A stretch of DNA of 20,000 nt from an uncultured virus (IMG/VR IMGVR_UViG_3300037067_021324) (lineage: Duplodnaviria; Heunggongvirae; Uroviricota; Caudoviricetes), in the IMG/VR virus record IMGVR_UViG_3300037067_021324; one strand, written 5' to 3'. A model generated the notes under the pieces. The model was not told where the DNA came from. It worked only from the letters and a program-made list of their open reading frames with translations, and made no database searches. Position numbers and translations under genes: made by a program. This document shows positions 1 through 19,757 of this stretch, piece by piece (the first letter of the stretch is position 1; each line of letters begins with the position of its first letter).

Positions 1-2005
1 TTAACAATTCTCTTGCCTCTTTATATTTATAAATTACATATGGTTCTAATTCAGCTACTAACCCTTTACCAATATCTCTATTGTTAAAAAATAAAGAATA
101 TGTTAATAAATCACCTTTATTTTTCCTATTTAATTTATCTGCTTCTTTTAATGCTTCTTCTTTATCTATTTTTTCAGAGGCGGTTGTCTCTGGCATTGTG
201 TTTATATATTTCTTAATAAAGTTTTGAATAGCTTCAGTTGGGATTTTTTGTTTTATAACGGGTAAATTCTTTGCAAATTCTGCTTGATAAAAATATAAGG
301 CTTTTCCCATATCTCTTTCAAAAGCATCTTGTAATTCTTCTTCAGAATATATATTGTATTCGGTTCCATCATCTTCTTTTTCTTTAATTTTTCTATATTC
401 TTGTGTCTCTTTTAATTTATCATTTGAAAAAGACATTTTAGAAATACTTTTATAAAAATCATACAATTCTTTAAACATATTATCTCTAGCCTCTCCAGTT
501 GCCTTTTTTGCATACACATCATAAACTTCTTCTCCAGTTTCTTCTGGCCATACATCGGCAAATTTTTTAACAGACTTTAGAGCTCCAATATTTTTTAATA
601 ATTGTCTAGATTGTGATGTTAATTCTGAAATAAAAGAATATGGAATTTCCCCTTTTATAGATTTAATTGTATTAAAGAAATTAAATAATTCTTCAGGAGA
701 AAAGAATTCATAAGTAAAAGTCCCGTCTTTTTGATTTATTAGAGTACAATAATCTTCAATATTTACTACAGCTTCTGACTTCGTTTTTTCAGTTCTTATT
801 TTGGGAATTATTGTTTCTAAGGGTTTTTTAAAACTTAATGTATTATATTTCATTTCAGATATTGTAAAAGCAATGTCCCTAGTATTAACAAATTCTATAT
901 TTGTTATTTTTTTAATTTCATCTATAACTGAATTTCTTGCAACTGATATTGCCCAAGCCCCAAAGTTTTGTCTAGCTACATCATATTTGTTTTCTACAGT
1001 TAGCCCATCTTTTATTTTGTCCCATGCAGTGTCTTGTATAATTTTGAATTCAGTATCATTTGGATTTAAATTAAATTTTCTACCAGTTAAAGTTGTAATC
1101 ATCGGGAATAAAGCACTAGTATAAAAATCTTTTAATGTAGCTAAAGCTAATCCAGCATAATGATTATTCCCAAATAGCATTTCTTCTAATTCATCCTTTG
1201 GCTTATTTGCGGCGACTCTTGATAAAAATTGTATTTGCCAAAATCCTTGTGGAGTCAATTTCAACTCATTATCTTTTGCATTAAGTTTTTCTGAAATAGA
1301 AGCTTTTTGATTTTTTGTGTTTGGATATAAATTCTTTTTTAATGATTCTATTGATGGAATGATTTCTTGCAATTCTTTATATGCACCTATTTTTTCTAAA
1401 TATTTTCTTTTTGAGTCTAAATCTAAAAATTTATCAAGTTCTCCATTTATATTTACTTTTTTAATTTTGTCTGTTAAAAAAATATTTGCTCTTTTTATAA
1501 TATTTTTAGATATTAAATTCAAAGCCTGTTCAAGATTAACTAGATTGGAATTGCTGAATTCTGGAGCAATTTGTTTTGTTATATCTTTAATAATTTCTTG
1601 CTGTTTTTTTTGCAAAACTTCAATAGAATCAATACTTCCAGGAGAAAACAATTTCATTTCATATGCTTTTCTTAAATAAAGAATTTGATATATATTATAT
1701 AATAATTTTTGATATATTTCTCCATTTCCTATCAGCATAGACACTTTCATTGGAAATGATAAATAGTCTTTTTCTAAAGTTTTTAAGTAATCACTATTTG
1801 CCTTTTGAATATCAATTGATGTTTGTTCTAAATCAGAATCAAGTTCTTTTTCTTTTTTTTCATTTGTCTTTTCTTCATCTTCTTCATTATTAACTTCAGA
1901 AGTTGATTCTTTTGATGGTTTCTTATTTTCCATTAAAGAATTGTTTATTCCAGCCAAAAACAACATCTTATTTAATTCTTCAGTTAATTTTATATTTTCT
2001 CTCAT
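1..2005 (-). CDS. Large hypothetical protein, runs off the window edge (>660 aa); possible virion protein
   Basis: ATG at 2005 on the minus strand. Hand translation gives MRENIKLTEELNKMLFLAGINNSLMENKKPSKES... and ...EARELL at the edge. The frame is presumably open to position 1, since no stop-terminated ORF appears in the track. ATATTTATA lies upstream. Confidence 0.85.
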   Translation of the reverse strand, partial: MRENIKLTEELNKMLFLAGINNSLMENKKPSKESTSEVNNEEDEEKTNEKKEKELDSDLEQTSIDIQKANSDYLKTLEKDYLSFPMKVSMLIGNGEIYQKLLYNIYQILYLRKAYEMKLFSPGSIDSIEVLQKKQQEIIKDITKQIAPEFSNSNLVNLEQALNLISKNIIKRANIFLTDKIKKVNINGELDKFLDLDSKRKYLEKIGAYKELQEIIPSIESLKKNLYPNTKNQKASISEKLNAKDNELKLTPQGFWQIQFLSRVAANKPKDELEEMLFGNNHYAGLALATLKDFYTSALFPMITTLTGRKFNLNPNDTEFKIIQDTAWDKIKDGLTVENKYDVARQNFGAWAISVARNSVIDEIKKITNIEFVNTRDIAFTISEMKYNTLSFKKPLETIIPKIRTEKTKSEAVVNIEDYCTLINQKDGTFTYEFFSPEELFNFFNTIKSIKGEIPYSFISELTSQSRQLLKNIGALKSVKKFADVWPEETGEEVYDVYAKKATGEARDNMFKELYDFYKSISKMSFSNDKLKETQEYRKIKEKEDDGTEYNIYSEEELQDAFERDMGKALYFYQAEFAKNLPVIKQKIPTEAIQNFIKKYINTMPETTASEKIDKEEALKEADKLNRKNKGDLLTYSLFFNNRDIGKGLVAELEPYVIYKYKEARELL

Positions 2006-2083
2006 GACAGAACAGTTTCTTTATAAATATTTGGAAAATATAAAAAAATATATTTAAAATTAAATAAAAAAGAATGATAAAGT

Positions 2084-2114
2084 TTTGTTATTTTAAAAAA
2101 AAGTAATATATTTG
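2084..2114 (+). promoter_or_regulatory. Bacteroidota primary-sigma promoter for ssb
   Basis: TTTG (2084-2087), 19 nt spacer, TATATTTG (2107-2114); matches the -33 TTTG / -7 TAnnTTTG consensus. Confidence 0.7.
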
Positions 2115-2153
2115 CTTTTGAAATTTTATTATTAATAATTAAAATTAAATTCT

Positions 2154-2849
2154 ATGAATGGAATAAATGAAGTATGGTTACTTGGTACCGTGGGGTCAGA
2201 CCCAGAAACCAAAACTTTTGAAAATGCCAGAGTAAGTTCATTTCGTATGGCTACAAATGAAAAGTATACTGATAAGACTGGTGAAAAAAAAGAAATAACA
2301 GAATGGCATAACATTGAAGGTTGGAATTATTTATCTGACACAATTTCAAATTATGTAAAAAAAGGAACTCCTATTGCTATAAGAGGTAAAATAAAAACTG
2401 ACTCTTATGATGATAAAGATGGTAAAAAAGTTTACAGAACAAAAATTGTTGCAGATAATATTAATCTTATTCCAAATGGTAAACCTGCTCAGCAACCTGT
2501 TCAGCAACCTGTTCAGCAACCTGTTCAGCAACCCGTTCAGCAACCTGTAAGACAGCCTAATTATCAGCAACAGCCTAATTATCAGCAACAGCCTAATTAT
2601 CAGCAACAGCCTAATTATCAGCAACAGCCTAATTATCAGCAACAGCCTAATTATCAGCAACAGCCTATTCAGCAGCCTATTCAGCAGCCTATTCAGCAGC
2701 AACCTGCAAGACAACAAAACTACCAAAATCCTGTAGGCAATTTTCAACAGCCTATTAATTCACAAGTTGTAATTCAAGCTAAACAAGAAGTTGAAAAATA
2801 TGTTACTGACGAACAATTTCGTAATATGCCAGATGATTTACCATTTTAA
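2154..2849 (+). CDS. ssb: Single-stranded DNA-binding protein with Q/P/N-rich linker
   Basis: OB-fold motifs (NEVWLLGTVGSDPE, FRMATNE, TEWHNI, YVKKG..I.IRGKI.T.SY.DKDG) and acidic C-terminal tail DDLPF. Confidence 0.97.
   Translation: MNGINEVWLLGTVGSDPETKTFENARVSSFRMATNEKYTDKTGEKKEITEWHNIEGWNYLSDTISNYVKKGTPIAIRGKIKTDSYDDKDGKKVYRTKIVADNINLIPNGKPAQQPVQQPVQQPVQQPVQQPVRQPNYQQQPNYQQQPNYQQQPNYQQQPNYQQQPNYQQQPIQQPIQQPIQQQPARQQNYQNPVGNFQQPINSQVVIQAKQEVEKYVTDEQFRNMPDDLPF
2490..2696 (+). repeat. Coding tandem repeats in the ssb linker
   Basis: 5 x 12 bp CAGCAACCTGTT (QQPV), 6 x 18 bp CAGCCTAATTATCAGCAA (QPNYQQ), 3 x 12 bp CAGCCTATTCAG (QPIQ). Confidence 0.95.
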
Positions 2850-2865
2850 TTTGTTTTTTAAAAAT

Positions 2866-2895
2866 AAAAAGCTCTACAATTGTAGAGCTTTTTTT
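2866..2895 (+). terminator. Intrinsic terminator after ssb
   Basis: AAAAAGCTCTAC-AATT-GTAGAGCTTTTTTT hairpin with T-tract. Confidence 0.85.
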
Positions 2896-2954
2896 ATTTT
2901 ATAGTTTTAATAAAGTAATATTTTTTAATATTTATATATAAATTATATTACACC

Positions 2955-3536
2955 ATGGAAATAGAAAAACAAATACGTTTATTAATACGTGAAATTGTAG
3001 GTAAGCATGTTGAGGAAGAAAGAATCCCAAATCCAGAAGCTGGTGAATATGTAGATAGAAAAGAAAATTTTCTTGGGTCTCATGCATATGGAGAAAATAT
3101 AGGAGATTTAAATAAAATGTATGTTGCATACTCTTATGGAGAGCAGCATCCATTATTTGTTTGGGTTGATAAAGAAGAATTTAAGGACTTAAGACCACAT
3201 GAAGCAAAAAATTTAACAGAAGGTGGAGACGATGAAAAAAAACACACACATCTTTATAGTAATGAGATTGCTCATGAAAAAATTGGAGATAAAGAAGTTG
3301 ATTTAGGTTATAAAAAAGGTCCATGGTTTTATAATGAAAAGCCTTATTATGTAAGAGATAAAAAAGGAAGATTAATCCCAAATAAATGGACATATAAGCA
3401 TTTAAAAGATTTAAAGCCGAATGAAAAAACTCAAGCTAGAGACACTACTTACTTACAAAAGTTAATTGGAGATTTTAAAAAAAAATATCATATTGGAGAT
3501 AATTCACATACAAATCTTCATCCAGGAGAAAAATAA
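2955..3536 (+). CDS. Hypothetical phage protein
   Basis: 193 aa ORF; contains YVAYSYGEQHPLFVW and WFYNE motifs; N-terminal IRLLIREIV; ATATTTATA upstream. Confidence 0.75.
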   Translation: MEIEKQIRLLIREIVGKHVEEERIPNPEAGEYVDRKENFLGSHAYGENIGDLNKMYVAYSYGEQHPLFVWVDKEEFKDLRPHEAKNLTEGGDDEKKHTHLYSNEIAHEKIGDKEVDLGYKKGPWFYNEKPYYVRDKKGRLIPNKWTYKHLKDLKPNEKTQARDTTYLQKLIGDFKKKYHIGDNSHTNLHPGEK

Positions 3537-3581
3537 TAACTATTTATTTATATTATAATAATTTTTTATTATTTTTGTTCT

Positions 3582-5225
3582 ATGAAAAAATTTTATGCAA
3601 TAATTTTAGGTTTTACAGCCATTTTGTTGGCTGTTACAGCAGCTTATTTCTCTGTGTTTGGGCTATCCAAATTATTTATAGGAGCTGCAACGTCAATTAT
3701 TATCATGGCTGGAACTCTTGAGTTTTCAAAAATAATAGTAGTGTCTTACTTACATCAATATTGGGATAAAATAGCAAAAAAAATAAAAGTATATTTACTT
3801 ATTGCAATAGCAGTATTGATGATTATTACCAGTGCTGGTATTTATGGATTTTTAACCAATGCTTACTCAAAAGTATCAACAGAGTTAGACAAGATGGGGG
3901 GAAATATAGAATTATTAGACAAAAGGATAGAAATAAAAAAAGAAGAAAAGAATAGGCTTGATGAGCAGCTAAAAACAAAAAGTGATAGGGTTATATCATT
4001 GACAAATCTTAGGAAAAGCCAAGAGACAAGACTGGATTCTTTGTATCAAAGAGGATGGATGGCTGCAGCAAAAAAAACAGAGGTTATAATAAGTCAAGCT
4101 GATGATAACATCACATCAGTAAATAAAGAAATTGATGCAATTGGAAAAAAAATAGAAATTTTAAATGATTCAATTGCTAAATATGAAACTTCAAAATTAG
4201 AAATTGATAATAGTAATATTGCATCAGAAGTGGGACCTCTTAAATATATTGCAAAATTAACTGGAACGGAAATGGATACTATTGTTAATTGGTTAACATT
4301 GCTTCTAATTATAGTTTTTGACCCTATGGCAGTGGCTCTTGTTATATCTACAAGTGCAATGATTAAATTAATTAGAGAGGAAAAACAGAATGAAAAAAAT
4401 AAAAGCAGAAGTGATTACTTTAAAAAGAAAGTGCAATATGTATCTGATGAGCAAGGTAATTTTAAATTGCAAGATGAAAACATTGGCATAAATAAATCTT
4501 CATTGAAAAACAAAGTATTAAAAAAATGGAAAGACATATTTAATAAAATTCCTTTTACGAAAAAGCCAACAGTAGATGAAAATGCTATTAAAAAAGAATT
4601 CGTTGAAAATGACATTATTAAAGAAAATATCACCAAGGAGGAAAACGCTATAAGTGATAATAATCCCATTAAAAAAGACACTATAGAAAAAGAAAATGTT
4701 GTAAATAAAGAATTTACTGAAGAAAATAGTTTTATCAAAAGAGATTCTATAGAGAAAGAGTCTACTGAAAAAGATGTTATAAAAGAATATATAGAAAATG
4801 AAACTAAAAATACTATAGAAGAATTTAAAAACGAAATTCCGATTTTTAGCGTGAATCAGAATACTGTGGTTCCTAGTGTTTTTACTGCAACAACTTCTCA
4901 AAATGAAACAGGAGAAAGAATTGAAGAAAACATAGCAGAAGAAGTTGAAAAGTTAACAATTGAGAATGTAGGGCAAAAACAAAGTTTGTATTTAAAATTG
5001 TTAGAAATTTTTTATGATAACGGAAATAAAAAAAAGGGAGATGAAATACCAAGTTATTCAGTTCTAATAAAGATGATAGATAAAAGAATAATTAATGTTA
5101 ATGAAAAAGATGTTAAAGATTTTCTTTTAATATGTAATCTATTAAAAATAACAGAGTTTAAAGAAAATCTTGGAATTTTTGAAAAAGATTATAAAAATGC
5201 AAAAATGCTTATATCAAGTATTTAA
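3582..5225 (+). CDS. Membrane-anchored coiled-coil protein
   Basis: Three N-terminal hydrophobic segments, a long heptad-like region, a further TM segment (WLTLLLIIVFDPMAVALVI) and an acidic low-complexity C-terminal half. Confidence 0.8.
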   Translation: MKKFYAIILGFTAILLAVTAAYFSVFGLSKLFIGAATSIIIMAGTLEFSKIIVVSYLHQYWDKIAKKIKVYLLIAIAVLMIITSAGIYGFLTNAYSKVSTELDKMGGNIELLDKRIEIKKEEKNRLDEQLKTKSDRVISLTNLRKSQETRLDSLYQRGWMAAAKKTEVIISQADDNITSVNKEIDAIGKKIEILNDSIAKYETSKLEIDNSNIASEVGPLKYIAKLTGTEMDTIVNWLTLLLIIVFDPMAVALVISTSAMIKLIREEKQNEKNKSRSDYFKKKVQYVSDEQGNFKLQDENIGINKSSLKNKVLKKWKDIFNKIPFTKKPTVDENAIKKEFVENDIIKENITKEENAISDNNPIKKDTIEKENVVNKEFTEENSFIKRDSIEKESTEKDVIKEYIENETKNTIEEFKNEIPIFSVNQNTVVPSVFTATTSQNETGERIEENIAEEVEKLTIENVGQKQSLYLKLLEIFYDNGNKKKGDEIPSYSVLIKMIDKRIINVNEKDVKDFLLICNLLKITEFKENLGIFEKDYKNAKMLISSI

Positions 5226-5556: not shown

Positions 5557-7644
5557 ATGGCAAGAACATTTGATGCTGAAAGAGATGAAAAAAACTTGAA
5601 TCCTACAGGTAAAAAAACAAAAACTCCTTTATTAGACTATTTCGGAAGAGATTTGACAAAATTAGCTTCTGAATCAGAATTAGACCCAGTATATGGGAGA
5701 GACAAAGAAATAGAAGAAATAATTCAAGTGCTAAATAAACGAAAAAAGAATAATCCGCTTTTAGTAGGAGAACCTGGAGTTGGGAAAACCGCAGTTGTTG
5801 AAGGTTTAGCTATTAAAATACATAAAAAAGAAGCTGAAGTGTGGCTTTTAAATAAACGTATTGTTGAAATTAACATAACATCTATGGTTTCTGGAACAAA
5901 ATATAGGGGAGAGTTTGAACAAAGGATGGAGGAGTTAATTAAAGAAATTGAAAACAATCCAGATATAATAATTTTTATTGATGAAATACATAATGTGGTT
6001 GGTGCTGGAGGAACTTCTGGGTCTATGGATGCTGCCAATATTATAAAGCCAGCATTATCAAAGGGAACTATGAAATGTATTGGGGCAACTACTTTTGAAG
6101 AATATAAAAAACACATTGAAAATGAAGGCGCTTTTGAAAGAAGATTTCAAAAAATTTATGTTAATGAACCAACAAAGGAAGAGACTGAAATACTATTAAA
6201 TAGTATTAAAGGAAAATATGAAGAATATCATTGTGTTGAATATTCAGAAGAGGTTATTAAAACATGTATAGATTATGCTGATAAATATATAACTTATAGA
6301 AAATTTCCAGATAAAGCAATTGATTTATTAGATGAAGTGGGGTCAAGAGTAAAATTAAAAAATGTTCCAGTTCCAGGAAATTTTAAAGAGCTAGAAGCAG
6401 AATTAGAAAAAACTGTTCTTAGAAAAAAAGAAGCGTCAAAAAATCAAAATTTTGAAGAAGCCGCAAGACATAGAGATGATGAAAGGAGAATACTTGAAGA
6501 ATTGGATAATGAAAGAAAAGTGTGGGAAAGAGAAACAAAAAAAAATAAAATTAAAGTAAAATCAGAGGATGTTGCTTGTATAATAGCATCTCATACTGGA
6601 ATTCCTGTAGTTAAATTAACTGATTCAGAAAATAAAAAATTTTTAAGTATATCAGATTATTTAAAAGAAAAAATAATAGGGCAAGATGAAGCAGTTCAAA
6701 AAGTAGAAGAAGCTATGCAACGGTCAAGATTAGGTATTCAAGACCCCTTTCGACCTCTCGCATCGTTTTTGTTTCTTGGTCCTACTGGAGTTGGCAAAAC
6801 TCTAATGGCAAAACTTATAGCTTCTCATTTATTTCACACAAATGACTCTTTTATAAGAATTGATATGTCTGAATATGAAGAAAAACATTCTGTATCAAAA
6901 CTCATAGGGTCTCCTCCCGGATATATTGGACACGAAGACAAAGGTCAATTGACTGAAAAAGTAAAAAATAGACCTTATTCACTTATTTTATTTGATGAAA
7001 TTGAAAAGGCACATCCAGATGTTTTTAATGTTTTTTTACAAGTACTTGATGAAGGAAAATTAACTGATTCTACTGGGGCTGAAATAAATTTTAAAAATAC
7101 AATTATTATAATGACATCTAATATAGGGACAAGAAGTTTGTTAGAAGGTAACTCTTTAGGTTTTGGAGTTAAACTAGATACTCTTAAAAATGACAAGAGT
7201 CTTGTATTTAAAGAATTAGAGAAAAGTTTTAAGCCAGAATTTCTTAATAGAATTGATGAAAAAGTAGTGTTTAATCCTCTTGGTAAAGAACAAATAGAAA
7301 TCATTGCAAAAATTGAAATGGACATGATGCTTTTTAGACTTAAAGAAAAAGGATATAATATAACAGTATCAAAAGAAGTTGTTTTAAGTATCGCTACCGT
7401 TGGATATGATAAAAAATATGGAGCTAGACCAATTAAAAGAGCCATTTCAGAAAGAGTAGGAAACCTTATTTCTAAAGCTGTGTTGAAAAAAGAAGTTGTA
7501 GTAAATAAAAAATATAGTCTTATATTGGAAAATGATGAAATAGTTATACATGACGAGACACCAATAGAGCAATTTGCAAATGATTCAGCAAATATTGAAA
7601 AACCAAAAAAAATCAGAAAAAATGCTAGAGATAAAAGCGAATAA
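5557..7644 (+). CDS. clpC: ClpC-like Hsp100 AAA+ ATPase lacking the Clp N-domain
   Basis: Two AAA+ modules (GEPGVGKT / IIFIDEIH; GPTGVGKT / ILFDEIEKAH), pore loops KYRGEFE and GYIG, UVR-like middle coil (QNFEEAARHRDDE), LGF loop, YGARPIKR. Confidence 0.92.
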   Translation: MARTFDAERDEKNLNPTGKKTKTPLLDYFGRDLTKLASESELDPVYGRDKEIEEIIQVLNKRKKNNPLLVGEPGVGKTAVVEGLAIKIHKKEAEVWLLNKRIVEINITSMVSGTKYRGEFEQRMEELIKEIENNPDIIIFIDEIHNVVGAGGTSGSMDAANIIKPALSKGTMKCIGATTFEEYKKHIENEGAFERRFQKIYVNEPTKEETEILLNSIKGKYEEYHCVEYSEEVIKTCIDYADKYITYRKFPDKAIDLLDEVGSRVKLKNVPVPGNFKELEAELEKTVLRKKEASKNQNFEEAARHRDDERRILEELDNERKVWERETKKNKIKVKSEDVACIIASHTGIPVVKLTDSENKKFLSISDYLKEKIIGQDEAVQKVEEAMQRSRLGIQDPFRPLASFLFLGPTGVGKTLMAKLIASHLFHTNDSFIRIDMSEYEEKHSVSKLIGSPPGYIGHEDKGQLTEKVKNRPYSLILFDEIEKAHPDVFNVFLQVLDEGKLTDSTGAEINFKNTIIIMTSNIGTRSLLEGNSLGFGVKLDTLKNDKSLVFKELEKSFKPEFLNRIDEKVVFNPLGKEQIEIIAKIEMDMMLFRLKEKGYNITVSKEVVLSIATVGYDKKYGARPIKRAISERVGNLISKAVLKKEVVVNKKYSLILENDEIVIHDETPIEQFANDSANIEKPKKIRKNARDKSE

Positions 7645-8435: not shown

Positions 8436-8439
8436 TTTT

Positions 8440-8466
8440 GTAACTTTTTTAAAAATATTGCGTATA
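8440..8466 (+). promoter_or_regulatory. GTAAC-N16-CGTATA promoter-like motif (copy 1)
   Basis: Same motif and 16 nt spacer at 15660, 15991 and 19620; AAC...CGT resembles ECF-sigma promoters. Confidence 0.7.
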
Positions 8467-8733: not shown

Positions 8734-10440
8734 ATGTCAAAATTTAACGAAAAAAGTGTGGCAAAAAACATAACCACAAATTATATGGGCGAGAAAGCTT
8801 ATATAGAAAAACCTGAATTTGAACTTGTTTCAATGCTTTTAACTTCATTTATGGAAGATTCATATTATGAAAAATCAAGTGATATGTTGGAAAGAATGAA
8901 GGCAGTATTAGAGAAAGTGGACACAAAATTTGCAGCAAAAGCTGCGATTTATGCGAGAAATGAATTTGGTATGAGGTCTATTTCTCATGTATTATCAATA
9001 GAATTATTGAAATATATTGGGGGACAGTCATGGGGAAAGAATTTCTTTGAATCTATTATCCGTAGGCCAGATGATATGACAGAAATCATCGCTTACTATT
9101 TTGCACAAGGGAATAAAAAGCTTCCTGCTGCAATTAAAAAAGGATTTGCTAAAGCATTTAATAAATTTGATAGATACCAAATTTCAAAATACAAAGGAAA
9201 AAATAAAAATGTTTCTCTTGTTGATGTTGTAAATCTTGTTCACCCACTTACAACCAAAAAAAATGGTGTTGTTGAAATAAAAAAGGATGAATATGCCGCC
9301 TTACTTGAAAAGAAATTAAAAAGTTTTGGGAAAAATGCAAATAAATATTCTGAAAAAATTGCAGAAATAAAAGCAAATTTAAATGAGATTAAAAATAATC
9401 AAGGAGATACTATTGAAATTTCAACTCTAAATGCATTGATGGCTGGCTTATTGAAAAACACAGAAACATGGGAAGCAAAGCTTTCAAAAGCCGGACAAGA
9501 AGCTAAATCTGATGAAGAAAAAGCAGAATTGAAAACAGAAGTTTGGAAAGATTTGTTTAAAGCAAAGAAAATGCCTTATATGGCTTTGCTAAAAAACTTA
9601 AGAAACATTTTTGAACAAGCTCCTGAACTTATTGATGAAGTTTGTGAAATGCTTGTTAATAGAAAAGCAATTGAAAATTCTTTGGTTCTTCCTTTTAGAT
9701 TTCTTTCAGCATATGAAGAAATAGAAAAACTCAAAAAAATAGGTACTTTCGAAAAAGATGAAGAAAATATTAGAAAGATTCTTGCTGCTATTGATGATGC
9801 TATTAAAACATCTGTTGTAAACTTGCCTACCTTATATGGAAAAACAGTTATTCTTTCCGATAATTCTGGAAGTATGACTGGTGATAGGGGTAATAGTTCG
9901 TTAATATCAAGATTGTCTAATATAAAAACAAGTGATATTGCAAATTTGTTTGCTGTACTTTATTGGCTAAAAGCTGATAATACTTTAGTTGGATTGTTTG
10001 GAGATAGATTAATATATCCAACACTTAACAGAAATGCTGGAGTATTTGAAAATTTTAAAGCAATTGATATCGAAAAAAACAAATGTGGGCCTAGCACTGA
10101 AAGAGGAATTTTTGATATGTTTGAAAAATTAATAAAAGAAAAAACTATAGTTGATTCAATTGTTGTTTTTTCTGACTGTCAAATAGGAAGTGGTTGTAAA
10201 TGGTATGACCAAAAAGGAAATCGTGGGGGAGAATTTAATAAATTATTTAATGATTATAAAAAAATAAGTCCAAAAGTTAGAGTGTATTCTGTAGATTTGA
10301 AAGGTTATGGAACAAACGTTTTCAATGATAATGTTTATAAAATTTTTGGATGGTCAGATAAAATATTTGACATCATGAAAGTTTTAGAACAGGACAAAAA
10401 TGCTCTTATTAAAATAATCAATGAATATGTTGATTTTTAA
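8734..10440 (+). CDS. Ro60/Rsr-like TROVE-domain ribonucleoprotein with C-terminal vWA domain
   Basis: TROVE motifs (TNYMGEKAY, AIYARNEFGMRS, RRPDDMTE, FD.YQ.SKY, DVVNLVHP, TWE, MPYMALLKNLRN, LPFRFLSAY), MIDAS DNSGSM, FSD.Q, VDLKGYG, IFGWSDKIF. Confidence 0.95.
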   Translation: MSKFNEKSVAKNITTNYMGEKAYIEKPEFELVSMLLTSFMEDSYYEKSSDMLERMKAVLEKVDTKFAAKAAIYARNEFGMRSISHVLSIELLKYIGGQSWGKNFFESIIRRPDDMTEIIAYYFAQGNKKLPAAIKKGFAKAFNKFDRYQISKYKGKNKNVSLVDVVNLVHPLTTKKNGVVEIKKDEYAALLEKKLKSFGKNANKYSEKIAEIKANLNEIKNNQGDTIEISTLNALMAGLLKNTETWEAKLSKAGQEAKSDEEKAELKTEVWKDLFKAKKMPYMALLKNLRNIFEQAPELIDEVCEMLVNRKAIENSLVLPFRFLSAYEEIEKLKKIGTFEKDEENIRKILAAIDDAIKTSVVNLPTLYGKTVILSDNSGSMTGDRGNSSLISRLSNIKTSDIANLFAVLYWLKADNTLVGLFGDRLIYPTLNRNAGVFENFKAIDIEKNKCGPSTERGIFDMFEKLIKEKTIVDSIVVFSDCQIGSGCKWYDQKGNRGGEFNKLFNDYKKISPKVRVYSVDLKGYGTNVFNDNVYKIFGWSDKIFDIMKVLEQDKNALIKIINEYVDF

Positions 10441-12969: not shown

Positions 12970-12980
12970 CAGTGCGGAAT

Positions 12981-13187
12981 ATGAAAAAGAAAGCTCACGA
13001 ATTAGAATTTATTAGCCAAATAAAACGAGATGGCTCAGGAACAACAAAAGTTAAAAAAAGCTACTTAAAAGCTATGTTAGAAAATTCATTGATGAAAGAC
13101 GAAGATTTTGAATTGCATTGCCTTTCATTAAGCGAAAAAACCTTTATAGCTTTTAACTTTAATGCTTTTATTGTTAGGGTCAAGTAG
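12981..13187 (+). CDS. Small hypothetical protein, probable gene cassette
   Basis: ATG at 12981, TAG stop; flanked by GTTATAACCAGTGC (12962-12975) and GCATTGGTTATAAC (13187-13200). Confidence 0.6.
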   Translation: MKKKAHELEFISQIKRDGSGTTKVKKSYLKAMLENSLMKDEDFELHCLSLSEKTFIAFNFNAFIVRVK

Positions 13188-15122: not shown

Positions 15123-15656
15123 ATGAAAAAATTATTAGCAAGAATTTTAAGATTTTTATTAAAAAAAGTTGAAAAATCTATTCATCGTAAATATAAAATA
15201 GATGAAGAAGAGTTAAAAGGTAGAGAATGTTGTATTCAGGTGCCAGAAATAAAGGAGTTAACAGAAGAACAAAAAAAAATTGTAAACATTTATGTTTATC
15301 ATGAATCAATTTTTTCAGTAAATATAAAAAATATACCTTCAAGATTAATTCAAGATTATTGTTTTGTAGATAATGATAAAATAAAACTAGAAATTATTTT
15401 AGGAGGAGAAAATGATTTGGATGTTTACGAAGAACTCGAAAAGAAAAAATGTTCAAATATTTTTGAAGAAAATATGGAAAAAGAAAATATGGAAATAGAA
15501 ATATTTTCACACATTGGATTTAATAAAAAAATAATATTGAAGAACATTAAAGTTATGAAAGTTAATGCCTTTGAACATGGTAATAGCAAATCGAAAGAAG
15601 TATATAAAGCAAATGTATTAATTAAATATGATTCTAAGTATATTGAAAGATTCTAG
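15123..15656 (+). CDS. Hypothetical protein
   Basis: 177 aa ORF ending in TAG, followed directly by the GTAAC promoter-like motif. Confidence 0.7.
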   Translation: MKKLLARILRFLLKKVEKSIHRKYKIDEEELKGRECCIQVPEIKELTEEQKKIVNIYVYHESIFSVNIKNIPSRLIQDYCFVDNDKIKLEIILGGENDLDVYEELEKKKCSNIFEENMEKENMEIEIFSHIGFNKKIILKNIKVMKVNAFEHGNSKSKEVYKANVLIKYDSKYIERF

Positions 15657-15659
15657 AAT

Positions 15660-15686
15660 GTAACTTTTTTTCTTTTTTAGCGTATA
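15660..15686 (+). promoter_or_regulatory. GTAAC-N16-CGTATA promoter-like motif (copy 2)
   Basis: GTAAC 15660-15664, CGTATA 15681-15686; 16 nt before the SemiSWEET ATG. Confidence 0.7.
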
Positions 15687-15966: not shown

Positions 15967-15990
15967 TAATTAAAAAAACTTGTTTTTTTT

Positions 15991-16017
15991 GTAACTTTTT
16001 TATATTTTTGTCGTATA
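15991..16017 (+). promoter_or_regulatory. GTAAC-N16-CGTATA promoter-like motif (copy 3)
   Basis: GTAAC 15991-15995, CGTATA 16012-16017; upstream of the PTH2-like gene. Confidence 0.7.
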
Positions 16018-16062
16018 GGTTAGTAGAAAATAAATTTTTTAAATATTTATTAAAAAAAAGCA

Positions 16063-16464
16063 ATGAAGTAGATTGTTAAAAATAATGCAAAATTAGCTGT
16101 AGTAACAAGAGAAGATTTAAAATTCAGTTACCAAGCTATCCAAAGTGGTCATGCCTTGGCCAAGTTCTGTATAGAACATAATGATATTGCTAATTCCTGG
16201 CACAAAAATTCCCAGTATTTAACTTATTTATCTGTAAAAGATGAATCTGAACTATTATTCTTGATTGAGAAAGCTCATTCGAGAGGAATAGCTATTTCCA
16301 TATTCAGAGAACCTGATATTGATAATCAAATCACCGCAATTGCTATAGAACCATCTGACGACGCCAGAAGGTTGTGTGCAGGACTTCGTTGTGCCCTAAA
16401 AGAAAGTTATCAAAACGGCTTGATTGACAAAAATAGTTATAAACAAAATACAGTATTAATTTAA
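16063..16464 (+). CDS. PTH2-fold peptidyl-tRNA hydrolase-like protein with in-frame TAG at codon 3
   Basis: ATG AAG TAG ATT GTT... gives MK*IVKNNAKLAVVTREDLKFSYQAIQSGHALAKF..., in frame with the 16156 ORF. KL.VV.R.DL...Q..Q..HA and FREPD..NQITAIAIEP resemble PTH2-family motifs. Confidence 0.75.
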
Positions 16465-16476
16465 AAAATTTTTTTT

Positions 16477-16833
16477 ATGAAAAGCGAAAAAATTAAAAAA
16501 CGTAAAGAAGTCTATTCCACAGAATTTTGTAATGGATTACACGTGGACGAGTTAACTGCCATTATTAATATGGCAAAAAAGGATTATGAGGCCGAATTTG
16601 TAGAGGTGTATGAAAATACCGATAGATGCGGAGACCACGAAGGTTATTCATTGGATTTTTACAAATATATTTTAGAGACAGATGAAGAGTGTGAAGAAAG
16701 ATTAGCATATGAAAAACATCAAGAACAAAAAAAGAAAATGGCAGAGGAAGCTGCTGCAAAAAAGAAGGCCGAAGACGAACAAATGAAGTTGCTAGAATTA
16801 ATGGAAAAATACCCAGAGTTGGTTAAAAAATAA
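16477..16833 (+). CDS. Hypothetical phage protein
   Basis: 118 aa ORF with ETDEE..ERL motif and charged coiled-coil tail. Confidence 0.75.
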   Translation: MKSEKIKKRKEVYSTEFCNGLHVDELTAIINMAKKDYEAEFVEVYENTDRCGDHEGYSLDFYKYILETDEECEERLAYEKHQEQKKKMAEEAAAKKKAEDEQMKLLELMEKYPELVKK

Positions 16834-16933: not shown

Positions 16934-17002
16934 GGGGAAAATAGCTTAAAGTAGAGCGATTGCTTTGACAAGATGTTGGTGGTTCATATCCATCTTTCCC
17001 CA
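16934..17002 (+). tRNA. Degenerate tRNA-like gene (possible TTG anticodon, malformed anticodon arm)
   Basis: Acceptor GGGGAAA/TTTCCCC, D stem GCTT/GAGC, T arm GGTGG-TTCATAT-CCATC; anticodon arm only TTG-CTTTGA-CAA. Confidence 0.55.
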
Positions 17003-17220: not shown

Positions 17221-17655
17221 ATGAAACAATTAAAAAGTTCTACAATGCTTGAAGCATGTAAATATCAGAAGCCTTCGGCTTTCAGTAGAGGAATGTCAGT
17301 AAAACTAAAAATGGACACCGAAATGATATTTATATCTGGAACAGCGAGTGTGGGAGAAAATGGAGATACATTATACAAAGGAAATTTTAAAAAGCAAACA
17401 AAGAGAATGTTTGAAAATATTACAGCTCTTTTGAAAAATGGAGGAATAACCTGGAAAAATGTAATCAAAACCACAATTTACTTAAGAGATATTGACCGTG
17501 ATTATGAAGAATTTAATGTTATAAGAAAAGATTTTTATGACAAAATGGGGTTAAGCATATATCCTGCTTCAGTTTGTGTAGAAGCAAAATTATGTAGAAA
17601 TGATTTATTAGTAGAAATGGAGTTAATAGCAATAAAAGATGAAACCGTACAATAA
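17221..17655 (+). CDS. Rid (YjgF/YER057c/UK114) family protein
   Basis: PSAFSRG, IFISGTAS, QT..MFENI..LL, V.KTTIYL.D, FN..R..F, PAS..V...LCR.DLLVEME.IA; ATG at 17221. Confidence 0.88.
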   Translation: MKQLKSSTMLEACKYQKPSAFSRGMSVKLKMDTEMIFISGTASVGENGDTLYKGNFKKQTKRMFENITALLKNGGITWKNVIKTTIYLRDIDRDYEEFNVIRKDFYDKMGLSIYPASVCVEAKLCRNDLLVEMELIAIKDETVQ

Positions 17656-18088
17656 ATTTAAATCTTTCCAAATAAGATGGAAAGAAAAAATGGGGAAAGA
17701 TAAAAATGACCCATATCTTATTAGATGGACATTTATATTTTTTAATTATTCCATCAGGATTCATAAATGGATAAGGTCAGATGATAAGAGATTTTTTCAT
17801 GACCATTCTTGTAATCTTGTATCAATGATTTTAAAGGGATGGTATTATAATGTGATTCCAGTTGACCCTGAAAATCCAGATGTAAATAATTGTAAAAAAA
17901 TAAGAGCAAAAGCATGGAAACCATGGTATGCAAATGCAAAGAAAAAACATTATTTGGAAATTCCTAAAGAAGGTGCCTGGACAATATTATTCTGTGGAAG
18001 GCCATACCACAAATGGGGATTCTATGTAAAAGGAAAAAGAGTAAGACCATTAAAATATTTTTATAAGTATGGAATGGTAAATGAATAA
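17639..18088 (+). CDS. Cupin-like phage protein
   Basis: YL.RW....F..SIRIH....SDD.R.FHDH...L.S.ILKGWY and H.LE....AWTILF.G....KWGF motifs. Confidence 0.7.
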   Translation: MKPYNKFKSFQIRWKEKMGKDKNDPYLIRWTFIFFNYSIRIHKWIRSDDKRFFHDHSCNLVSMILKGWYYNVIPVDPENPDVNNCKKIRAKAWKPWYANAKKKHYLEIPKEGAWTILFCGRPYHKWGFYVKGKRVRPLKYFYKYGMVNE

Positions 18089-18452: not shown

Positions 18453-18935
18453 CTAATGTTTACACTTTTTGCAAGATTGTTTTCCGCAATAAGTTTCTGT
18501 TTGACTATGACAGTTTGGACACAGAAATCTCAGATTGCTCAATCTATTATCATTGTTAATGCCATTTTTGTGGTCTAATTGTAATGTTAATGTTTTATCT
18601 AGCCATTCACCATTATTGTTGCACTCACAACATGTATACTGTAAAAGACCTGCTTTGATAATTCTTAATTTCAATCTATAATTATTATTATATTGTGAAT
18701 CCTGTACAAGGATTTCATTTAATGGCACCCCACGTTCTCCACACAATTTGTGTCCCAACATATGGCTGACAGATAATTCTTCATCACGTATTCTGTTGTT
18801 GATTTTATTGTAATTTGACGCACTTGTATATTTATATCCAAGTTTTAACAAAGCATGCTTAATGCTCACACTCGATTCAATTACTTTTTTAAATTCCTCT
18901 TTAGAAATTGAATCAATTTTTGTTTTGTTTTTCAT
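18453..18935 (-). CDS. HNH endonuclease (tRNA-cluster associated, homing-type)
   Basis: C..C...W....L.LQLDHKNG...DNRLSNLRFLCPNCHSQT motif; lies antisense between tRNA genes; TAG stop. Confidence 0.92.
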   Translation of the reverse strand: MKNKTKIDSISKEEFKKVIESSVSIKHALLKLGYKYTSASNYNKINNRIRDEELSVSHMLGHKLCGERGVPLNEILVQDSQYNNNYRLKLRIIKAGLLQYTCCECNNNGEWLDKTLTLQLDHKNGINNDNRLSNLRFLCPNCHSQTETYCGKQSCKKCKH

Positions 18936-19036: not shown

Positions 19037-19110
19037 GGGAATGTAGCTCAGAGGCAGAGCAATCCACTCTAGATGGATTTTGGTCGCAGGTTCGAATCCT
19101 GTCTTTCCTT
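19037..19110 (+). tRNA. tRNA with CUA anticodon (amber suppressor 1)
   Basis: Acceptor GGGAATG/CTTTCCT (one U-U), D arm GCTC-AGAGGCA-GAGC, anticodon arm ATCCA-CTCTAGA-TGGAT (CTA at 19069-19071), T arm GCAGG-TTCGAAT-CCTGT; CCA not encoded. Confidence 0.85.
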
Positions 19111-19165
19111 CAATTGCACAAGGTGTACAGTTATAAATTAAAATAAAAATTTAAAAAAAATAATT

Positions 19166-19603
19166 ATGGAAACACAATTAAAAGAAAAAGTAGACTTAGC
19201 AAATCTTAAAAAGATTGAAGATTATTTAGAAACAACGTCCAAGCACTTGTTTTTAACAGAAGATGGAAAGTTTTTTAAAGCTTTCTCGGTAAAAATAAAA
19301 GACAAATTGTATTGTATAACATTAAATTTTGATGGAGTAGAATCAAATAATGTAACAATTATTGATGTGGAACGTTATATTCCACGTTATGGAAACAATA
19401 CAAAAAATGTAATTTCTCACTTTTTATTCCCGCCACATGTAAATAGAAGAACATCTATATCAAGTTTCAAAGCTATGAAAGAAAAGGTGAATGAAATTAA
19501 AAAATTCATTGAGGAAAAATTTGATGGAAAAAACATAGAAATTATTGTAAATGAAATTAAAAAAATGCTTGTTGGATTAACAGTAAAGAAGGAAGGGGAT
19601 TAA
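19166..19603 (+). CDS. Hypothetical protein
   Basis: 145 aa ORF with AATT-ATG start, between the two CUA tRNAs. Confidence 0.75.
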   Translation: METQLKEKVDLANLKKIEDYLETTSKHLFLTEDGKFFKAFSVKIKDKLYCITLNFDGVESNNVTIIDVERYIPRYGNNTKNVISHFLFPPHVNRRTSISSFKAMKEKVNEIKKFIEEKFDGKNIEIIVNEIKKMLVGLTVKKEGD

Positions 19604-19619
19604 TCTCCTTCCTTTTTTT
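19591..19619 (+). terminator. Intrinsic terminator
   Basis: GGAAGGGGA-TTAA-TCTCCTTCC followed by T7. Confidence 0.8.
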
Positions 19620-19646
19620 GTAACTTTTTTTGTTCTTTCTCGTATA
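19620..19646 (+). promoter_or_regulatory. GTAAC-N16-CGTATA promoter-like motif (copy 4)
   Basis: GTAAC 19620-19624, CGTATA 19641-19646; upstream of the second CUA tRNA. Confidence 0.7.
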
Positions 19647-19684: not shown

Positions 19685-19757
19685 CCCCCCATAGCTCAGT
19701 TGATTAGAGCAGTGGACTCTAAATCCATGGTCGAGAGTTTGAATCTCTCTGGGGTGG
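19685..19757 (+). tRNA. tRNA with CUA anticodon (amber suppressor 2)
   Basis: Acceptor CCCCCCA/TGGGGTG (one mismatch), D arm GCTC-AGTTGATTA-GAGC, anticodon arm GTGGA-CTCTAAA-TCCAT (CTA at 19719-19721), T arm GAGAG-TTTGAAT-CTCTC. Confidence 0.85.

Follow-up and report, generated by a model that had tools for sequence, protein, structure and literature searches.

An early in-frame amber codon conserved in a phage peptidyl-tRNA hydrolase-like gene and its linkage to amber suppressor tRNA genes

The 20,000-nucleotide stretch of DNA analysed here, called the window throughout, comes from the uncultured virus IMGVR_UViG_3300037067_021324 and encodes a putative hydrolase of the PTH2 family whose reading frame carries an in-frame amber codon (TAG) in third position. 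Translation of this hydrolase appears to be gated by the phage's own amber suppressor tRNA, i.e., a tRNA with the anticodon CUA (tRNA(CUA)), a reading to which a probability of about 0.7 is given on the basis of sequence comparison. The module would comprise the PTH2-like hydrolase gene together with one or two tRNA(CUA) genes in an otherwise standard-code genome. The gene itself is laid out as follows:

16063..16065, plus strand: ATG start codon of the gated open reading frame (ORF), from the sequence
16069..16071, plus strand: in-frame amber codon TAG, codon 3 of the frame, followed by ATT
16063..16464, plus strand: PTH2-like hydrolase ORF, 133 amino acids with the TAG decoded, ending at the stop codon TAA at 16462-16464

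From 16063 the plus strand reads ATG AAG TAG ATT GTT AAA AAT AAT GCA AAA TTA, with an A-rich leader before it. When the TAG is read as a residue, a single ORF of 133 amino acids runs from 16063 to 16464 with exactly one odd codon. The reading frame passes the TAG unshifted and no frameshift is required; quadruplet decoding of TAGA is ruled out, as the ORF goes on in the triplet frame. ORF calling with translation table 11 lets the gene begin only at the TTG at 16156 and yields a product of 102 amino acids (16156-16464), which is what can be said for regarding the arrangement as an artefact or a case of decay, with a sequencing error, a pseudogene or a true start at 16156. Initiation at this TTG (residue 32) would cost about 22 positions of the PTH2 profile and would remove strand 1 (residues 10-16), half of helix 1 and the invariant residues K10, L11, Q27 and H30. 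The protein must therefore begin upstream of residue 10, where the first strand starts, and no ATG, GTG or TTG is present between the TAG and that residue. Contigs from four other sequencing runs were compared, one of which spans the gene start: this contig, from an independent run (coded X5, record 11), covers 16044-16600 with 0 differences from the window. More than 50 independent assemblies likewise retain the TAG with an intact frame, and an artefact is scarcely credible. The pattern ATG-(0-5 codons)-TAG followed by a long frame has 5 matches in the window, of which the one at 16063 is the sole credible one; 3 others fall within the end of a ClpB-like gene and 1 within the ORF 16477-16833. 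An earlier note on this DNA, made from the letters alone, had described the ATG-AAG-TAG behind an A-rich leader, the frame open to 16464, the lack of a start codon between the TAG and the N-terminal signature and the deletion of that signature by the 16156 start, and had named a sequencing error as a possible flaw; its description is borne out on every checkable point.

The window protein is, by predicted fold and Pfam match, a PTH2-like putative hydrolase. Residues 10-100 correspond to positions 2-102 of the 115 positions of the Pfam profile PTH2 (PF01981), with an E value of 1.7e-9 and a score of 38.4 bits at a curated cut-off of 23. An AlphaFold2 model, made from an alignment of 27 relatives, has a predicted local distance difference test (pLDDT) value of 88.8 and a predicted template modelling score (pTM) of 0.82, and it is this model that defines strand 1. 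In a Foldseek comparison with the PDB, archaeal Pth2 or human Bit1 fills all 12 rows at ranks 1-14, with TM-scores by target length of 0.56-0.78, and Atu0240, whose function is unknown, follows at rank 15. The profile of the 27 relatives matches 7 PDB sequences of Pth2 or Bit1 with a best E value of 1.6e-8. Membership of the PTH2 family is thus indicated both by sequence and by the alpha/beta fold. The predicted active-site loops are diverged. In Sulfolobus Pth2 the catalytic Lys reportedly lies in a G-K-G-K loop and an Asp in a D-A-G motif. In the alignment of the phage family with archaeal Pth2, two residues of the G-K-G-K loop are missing, a nearly invariant Tyr23 is aligned at the archaeal Lys position after this 2-residue deletion, and an invariant Glu83-Pro-Asp85 stands at the D-A-G motif (R-E-P-D versus the archaeal R-D-A-G).

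The early TAG is conserved among relatives whose proteins are 42-74% identical to that of the window. Viral contigs yielded 46 related loci in a first scan, and in 38 of them an in-frame ATG-(0-3 codons)-TAG directly precedes the domain; the rest are 6 G+C-rich loci with a sense codon (M-A-T-I-K), 1 TAG without an upstream ATG and 1 poor match. A second scan with the family alignment took the best 80 of 119 relatives and 1 locus from a genome collection, i.e., 81 loci, of which 66 are non-duplicate. A locus was scored as gated when an in-frame start codon stood 1-4 codons before the TAG, and start-(0-4 codons)-TAG occurs at the same place in 50 of these 66 loci. The TAG is codon 2 in one gated locus, codon 3 in 28, codon 4 in 16 and codon 5 in 5, and the stop is TAG in all of them, never TAA or TGA. 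L235, outside this count, has a TAG in frame but no start codon in that range before it. The codon directly before the TAG varies freely, with 14 different kinds among 35 aligned sequences, and in 31 of 35 gated genes no ATG, GTG or TTG is found from the TAG to the domain. GGAG precedes the ATG by 5-9 nucleotides in several relatives. The TAG state occupies 32 of 42 rows of the family tree and is dispersed over it, the median end branch being 0.31 changes per column. Ungated relatives open with M-A-T-I-K and have a sense codon exactly at the place of the TAG, indicating that the short N-terminal tail belongs to the protein.

As a control, the 66 loci were searched for ATG-(0-4 codons)-stop with 90 or more open codons behind it, giving 100 cases for TAG, 49 for TAA and 51 for TGA. 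The hydrolase gene accounts for 48 of the 100 TAG cases, and the other excess comes mostly from a second gated family and from homing-endonuclease fusions described below. As judged from these comparisons, the TAG is neither an error nor a product of chance.

The second line of evidence is the linkage of the TAG to its cognate tRNA. Two such genes are found in the window by both ARAGORN and Rfam, where the earlier note had placed two CUA tRNAs:

19037..19111, plus strand: tRNA(CUA) number 1, amber suppressor (ARAGORN; Rfam tRNA 56.5 bits)
19685..19757, plus strand: tRNA(CUA) number 2, amber suppressor (ARAGORN; Rfam tRNA 57.6 bits)

Both stand on the strand of the hydrolase gene, 3.0 and 3.6 kb downstream of it. 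When tRNA(CUA) was sought in flanks of up to 6 kb on each side of the 66 loci, it was present at 46 gated loci and absent from 4, and present at 1 ungated locus and absent from 15 (Fisher p 2e-10, uncorrected for relatedness). The nearest tRNA(CUA) is on the strand of the gene in 46 of 46 cases; 11 of these begin 111-275 nucleotides before the gene match, and 32 are found 350-3632 nucleotides downstream. Whole contigs were also consulted for loci of the first scan that have no tRNA(CUA) inside 3 kb. In three (G006, G007 and G012) it lies at a distance of 3-6 kb, G008 has an irregular-loop tRNA containing CUA, and two small fragments (G009 and G010) yielded none; G011, in which the gene is without an ATG-TAG leader, has no CUA among its 24 tRNAs. 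A conserved in-frame stop codon at a fixed place, co-inherited with its cognate tRNA, is the pattern by which read-through by a dedicated suppressor is recognised, and both the conservation and the co-occurrence that the earlier note's reading called for are thus present.

The tRNA(CUA) genes are diverse. Number 1 is 87% identical to one CUA tRNA of the closest complete relative, a 372,283-bp contig rated complete (G001) that shows synteny with the window (nucleotide identity about 65-82%) and has a hydrolase gene that is 74% identical. Number 2 has no sequence kinship with number 1 and belongs to a separate cluster. The 38 distinct CUA tRNAs form 9 clusters. Two unrelated tRNA(CUA) genes side by side are common, at least 2 being present in 15 of 47 CUA-bearing loci, and in most of the pairs examined one begins with G1 and its partner with C1 or U1. 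Two other identities were considered for the window tRNAs. The label 'tRNA-Pyl' reflects the anticodon alone, and pyrrolysine tRNA was set aside because Rfam scores both as ordinary tRNAs, pyl genes not having been searched for. An amber-initiator tRNA was rejected as well: by eye the anticodon stems are without three consecutive G-C pairs, and such a tRNA would also make the conserved ATG before the TAG superfluous. Ochre-type tRNAs with the anticodon UUA occur in G001 (33634-33706, minus strand), beside the ungated gene of Lak-C1 (L098, 3249-3321) and at one gated locus without a CUA tRNA (L241), about 1730 nucleotides after the start of the gene match.

The gene and one of the suppressor tRNAs share a promoter-like motif, which is repeated in the window together with a terminator-like element:

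15990..16017, plus strand: promoter-like motif TGTAACTTTTTT-N10-CGTATA, 46 nucleotides upstream of the ATG at 16063
19619..19646, plus strand: copy of the promoter-like motif, about 40 nucleotides upstream of tRNA(CUA) number 2
8439-8465 and 15659-15685, plus strand: copies of the promoter-like motif, before a TROVE-like gene and a small membrane-protein gene, respectively
19585..19618, plus strand: terminator-like hairpin and T run, directly before the promoter-like motif at 19619

The consensus TGTAACTTTTTT-N8-10-CGTATA thus has 4 copies, all on the plus strand and intergenic, with the 12-mer exact, and the GTAAC promoter-like motif reported in the earlier note proves real and repeated. In G001, GTAAC-N14-18-CGTATA occurs 20 times versus 0.95 in shuffled sequence, with copies about 100 nucleotides upstream of the homologous gene and before the corresponding CUA tRNA (74364). 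The common motif before the gene and one CUA tRNA in both the window and G001 suggests that the hydrolase gene and tRNA(CUA) may be turned on together.

The gate extends beyond the hydrolase. A second family of proteins of about 190 amino acids, marked by the motif FHDCGKPYC, is encoded directly upstream of the hydrolase gene in 13 of the 66 loci; a Pfam search of this family returned no match, and no relative of it was found in the window. Of its 13 leaders, 11 are ATG-(1-4 codons)-TAG in frame, 1 has the TAG after six codons and 1 is fused to the hydrolase. The loci concerned are L177 (5409-6005), L171, L173, L174, L178, L188, L189, L191, L197, L202, L207, L225 and L244. L207 and L043 have the second-family domain fused to the PTH2-like domain, and the translations, as read here, show the same for the phages pT24 and XacN1. 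A joint function of the two proteins is probable, and the gate belongs to the module rather than to one gene.

A different kind of fusion involves homing endonucleases. At six loci a duplicated ATG-x-TAG leader with roughly the first 18 hydrolase codons runs in frame into a homing-endonuclease-like ORF, just upstream of the intact hydrolase gene (L167 2098-3117, L169 3033, L176 5196, L196 1709-2449, L220 4975 and L240 1930). The domains in these fusions are DUF4379/DUF723 repeats, or HNH_4 with NUMOD3.

The family is also present in cultured and deposited phages. A protein search of deposited phages matched 238 records, comprising 206 Mycobacterium phages, 15 Lak phages, 8 uncultured huge phages, XacN1, pT24 and others. 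Tenacibaculum phage pT24 reads ATG AAA TAG ATA, with an annotated tRNA-Sup 2.6 kb upstream; the annotated start of this coding sequence (BPT24_235) is 96 nucleotides late and falls inside the domain (L100 4097-4915). Among huge-phage assemblies, LR756501 has ATG TCG TAG ATT with two CUA tRNAs downstream and LR756504 has ATG ACA TAG ATT. The mycobacteriophages Cane17, Alice, ScottMcG and I3 have ATG TAG GTG and ScoobyDoobyDoo has GTG TAG GTG; in 5 of 5 cluster-C mycobacteriophages examined a tRNA(CUA) lies about 180-300 nucleotides downstream of the gene. The mycobacteriophage coding sequences (L096, L101-L104) are annotated from the GTG directly after the TAG. The 91-nucleotide start region is found at 95% identity or more in 202 mycobacteriophage records, which were counted as one lineage. 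XacN1 and Aeromonas phage CC2, as well as Lak-C1, carry distant relatives of the gene with no gate and no CUA tRNA nearby. A single match was obtained in 185,579 species genomes: L165, a 170-kb contig in a metagenome-assembled genome labelled Methanobacterium, which is probably a mis-binned phage contig. Its leader is ATG ACA CAT TAG, and a CUA tRNA begins 111 nucleotides upstream of the gene match.

Suppressor tRNAs and in-frame TAG codons could also signify genome-wide reassignment of TAG (code 15), as in Lak and some crAss-like phages. The presence of suppressor tRNA(CUA) genes fits such reassignment, and so does the AT-rich, TAA-dominated composition, which is the setting from which recoding arises according to the preprint by Borges et al. 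(10.1101/2021.08.26.457843). Code usage was judged on the complete or near-complete relatives G001, G014 and G012 (400 kb each of G014 and G012) and on the window ORFs. Coding density under code 11 and with TAG as sense is 0.899 and 0.903 in G001, 0.922 and 0.917 in G014 and 0.912 and 0.912 in G012, i.e., the three are 90-92% dense under code 11. TAG serves as a terminator in all three, ending 36 of 464 ORFs in G001, 28 of 608 in G014 and 49 of 587 in G012, with TAA ending 385 of 464 in G001. Code 15 would be marked by a gain in density with TAG as sense and by the disuse of TAG as terminator, and neither is seen. There is no excess of TAG-split genes either: pairs of long ORFs joined in the same frame across a TAG number 0, 7 and 2 in G001, G014 and G012, and the TGA equivalents 5, 9 and 13. 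Leaders of the form ATG-x-stop in G001 have no TAG excess (TAG 5/46, TAA 24/351, TGA 5/66). In the window, the four ORFs of more than 500 amino acids are the same whether TAG is stop or sense, which agrees with the earlier note's remark that the long genes contain no in-frame TAG, and the other ORFs gain nothing when TAG is read as Gln. A neutral sense codon, moreover, would not remain TAG at one position over such divergence. Genome-wide reassignment is accordingly highly improbable: the relatives are standard-code phages that carry amber suppressors and put TAG in one specific spot. As the closest complete relative uses the standard code, the read-through would be local rather than part of a general recoding. 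The earlier note had called it gene-specific; this holds in so far as it is set against genome-wide recoding, but not in the strict sense of a single gene, since the second family has the same leader in one clade.

In the favoured mechanism, ribosomes would initiate at the ATG at 16063 and reach the UAG at codon 3. With release factor 1 alone, a dipeptide (a di- to tetrapeptide across the relatives) would be released and no enzyme made. Once the phage tRNA(CUA) has been transcribed, processed and charged, the UAG would be decoded, with insertion of whichever amino acid the tRNA may carry, and the 133-amino-acid protein would be made, so that the amount of hydrolase is tied to the capacity for amber suppression. 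Initiation at the ATG with translation of the tail is supported by the GGAG before the ATG in several relatives and by the ungated relatives, which begin three codons ahead of the conserved Ile or Val. The base after the TAG, too, is a purine in 35 of 35 sequences (A 24, G 11), and in E. coli amber suppression is favoured by a purine in that place. On very short nascent chains release factors are inefficient, so that an early UAG may be decided mainly by tRNA supply.

The most likely purpose of the gate would be feed-forward coupling, in which a recycling or rescue enzyme is made in proportion to active suppression. The ungated members bear on the role of the enzyme. Beside the gene in the ungated G+C-rich clade are tRNAs with irregular anticodon loops of 6 or 8 nucleotides, found at 11 of the 16 ungated loci; the family thus adjoins unusual tRNAs even without the gate, and the enzyme probably handles a consequence of such tRNAs, e.g., by recycling peptidyl-tRNA that has dropped off or by rescuing read-through ribosomes. 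At L019 (4756-4914), L017 (4750-4902), L028 (4436-5048) and others, ARAGORN reports these tRNAs after the hydrolase gene, with UUCA in the 6- or 8-nucleotide loop. The idea that they are opal suppressors was dropped: G005 is a standard-code contig in which TGA is the main terminator (56 of 72 ORFs), making strong opal suppression by UUCA-loop tRNAs unlikely. A homeostat is a more tentative, and on the whole doubtful, version of the same gate. Here the enzyme would act on acylated or peptidylated tRNA(CUA), and the UAG at codon 3 would close a negative feedback loop that keeps read-through at a set level in a genome where 5-8% of the genes still end in TAG. Such negative feedback on the suppressor, similar to that of prfB, is possible and would fit the diverged active-site loops. 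The translation-state sensor that the earlier note likened to prfB autoregulation would likewise require an action of the product on UAG decoding. If true, the homeostat would be the tRNA-based counterpart of prfB autoregulation, would set a natural precedent for gene switches built on orthogonal tRNAs, and would explain why standard-code phages have amber suppressors at all.

Several observations weigh against gating by read-through. Four of the 50 gated loci are without a CUA tRNA, of which 2 have short flanks, 1 has a UUA tRNA and 1 has none in 6 kb; conversely, L238 has two CUA tRNAs yet a sense codon at the gate position. No gate is present in Lak-C1, a TAG-recoded phage. TAG remains the terminator of 5-8% of the ORFs in the relatives, and strong suppression would therefore carry a cost. 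No amino-acid identity could be called for either tRNA(CUA) of the window, the nearest non-CUA tRNAs of G001 being 64-69% identical and of mixed kinds.

The remaining points against read-through concern the codons that follow the TAG, and they are also the main support for a different explanation. In this, ATG-(0-4 codons)-TAG is a separate minigene, and translation of the enzyme would begin with the codon behind the TAG (ATT, GTT, GTA or GTG), through either termination-reinitiation or near-cognate initiation. The part of the suppressor tRNA would then be limited to modulating the process, or the link would be indirect, e.g., through peptidyl-tRNA drop-off, and the length of 2-5 codons is within the range prone to drop-off. 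The Ile codon after the TAG is ATT in 30 of 33 cases versus 58% in the bodies of the same genes (p 4e-5), a preference equally compatible with a context effect on suppression and with weak initiation at AUU. In 5 of 5 mycobacteriophages the codon right after the TAG is the GTG that annotators chose as start, with a purine-rich stretch, GAAGG or AGGGG, well spaced about 7 nucleotides upstream of it, and the gate may be bypassed there. The second family has a conserved ATG 6-7 codons past its TAG, which makes its reliance on read-through less clear. A minigene leaves unexplained, however, why the stop is exclusively TAG when TAA ends about 83% of ORFs, and why loss of the leader goes with the absence of a neighbouring tRNA(CUA) (15 of 16 ungated loci). 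Its frame is that of the gene in every case, although a separate upstream ORF could lie in any frame. At 5 of the 50 gated loci AGC, AAC or GGC follows the TAG, none of them start-like, and the Ile or Val after the TAG is kept in ungated relatives that start three codons earlier. A start after the TAG is therefore an unlikely, if not negligible, explanation, and suppression of the UAG by tRNA(CUA) is preferred.

The window has a G+C content of 27.5% and looks like part of a very large phage; in a megablast search of the whole window against deposited phages no match was found. By Pfam search it encodes an SSB protein, a ClpB-like double AAA ATPase, a TROVE/Ro60-like protein, a metallophosphatase and a RidA-like protein. 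The ORFs for the ClpB-like ATPase, the TROVE/Ro60-like protein, the RidA (L-PSP) protein and a cysteine-dioxygenase-like protein are those at 5557-7644, 8734-10440, 17266-17655 and 17639-18088. No Y-RNA family scored above the Rfam threshold anywhere in the window. A tRNA-like gene with an irregular loop lies between the hydrolase gene and the tRNA(CUA) pair:

16935..17002, plus strand: tRNA-like gene with an irregular 6-nucleotide anticodon loop CUUUGA (Rfam RF00005, 41.1 bits; missed by ARAGORN)

Its counterpart in L001 (3513-3582) has the loop CUUCGA. The window ORFs end in TAA in 25 of 28 cases and in TAG in 3 of 28, namely 12972-13187 (plus strand), 15123-15656 (plus strand) and 18453-18935 (minus strand). 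Active suppressors would lengthen 12972-13187 by 4 codons and 18453-18935 by 8, while 15123-15656 would gain 83 codons and pass two more TAGs.

If it operates as proposed, the gate would have consequences beyond this gene. Phage suppressor tRNAs have hitherto been discussed mostly in relation to whole-genome recoding; here they occur in standard-code genomes with one small, deeply conserved target. Gating would give such tRNAs a concrete, testable job, would be a natural example of gene gating by a suppressor tRNA and would point to a functional tie between a PTH2-like enzyme of phages and tRNAs with unusual decoding. The gene is cut short or given a wrong start by standard gene callers, at 16156 in the window, 96 nucleotides late in pT24 and at the GTG in the mycobacteriophages. 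As both pT24 and mycobacteriophages of the Bxz1 type (host M. smegmatis) are available in culture, a bench test is directly possible.

The closest parallels among known systems are found in translational control. In prfB, the gene of release factor 2 (RF2), an early in-frame stop codon can be passed only by a +1 frameshift, and the product reads that stop. The likeness lies in an early in-frame stop that ties the synthesis of a translation factor to the decoding of that stop; unlike in prfB, the frame here is unshifted and the reader would be a tRNA rather than the gene product. The bar minigenes of phage lambda give rise to drop-off peptidyl-tRNA in Pth-deficient E. coli. They consist of AUG, one to four codons and a stop, a form also found here with the TAG at codon 2-5. 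In contrast to bar, the present mini-ORF shares its frame with a gene further downstream, its stop is UAG without exception, and it goes together with a suppressor tRNA. As for the enzyme, the fold and the Pfam match are common to the phage protein and to Pth2 (PF01981; structures 2zv3, 3erj and 1xty, and human Bit1, 1q7s).

The genes themselves have been seen before. PTH2 has been reported in jumbo phages (PMC7824862) and in the tRNA arrays of cluster-C mycobacteriophages (PMC5966550), and the accessible portions of both papers mention neither 'suppressor' nor the amber codon. A full-text literature search, with subscription journals and bioRxiv supplements (including the Borges tables) outside its coverage, found no description of an amber-gated hydrolase gene. 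The arrangement is apparently undescribed, and its kind, stop-codon-based translational control by phage suppressor tRNAs, is already known. Borges et al. (10.1101/2021.08.26.457843) proposed that in-frame stop codons regulate phage late genes and that the code-change module is itself written in standard code; the word 'hydrolase' is absent from the text of that preprint. The recoded phages share with the present ones the suppressor tRNA and in-frame TAG in AT-rich, TAA-dominated genomes. They differ in that the code here is standard and TAG terminates, with one TAG placed at codon 2-5 of a tRNA-adjacent gene (two genes in one clade). Synthetic feed-forward switches, as far as the available text of PMC7969014 describes them, use a suppressor tRNA and an early amber codon to gate leaky expression, as would be the case here. 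That switch is engineered, and the phage module would be its natural, evolutionarily conserved counterpart.

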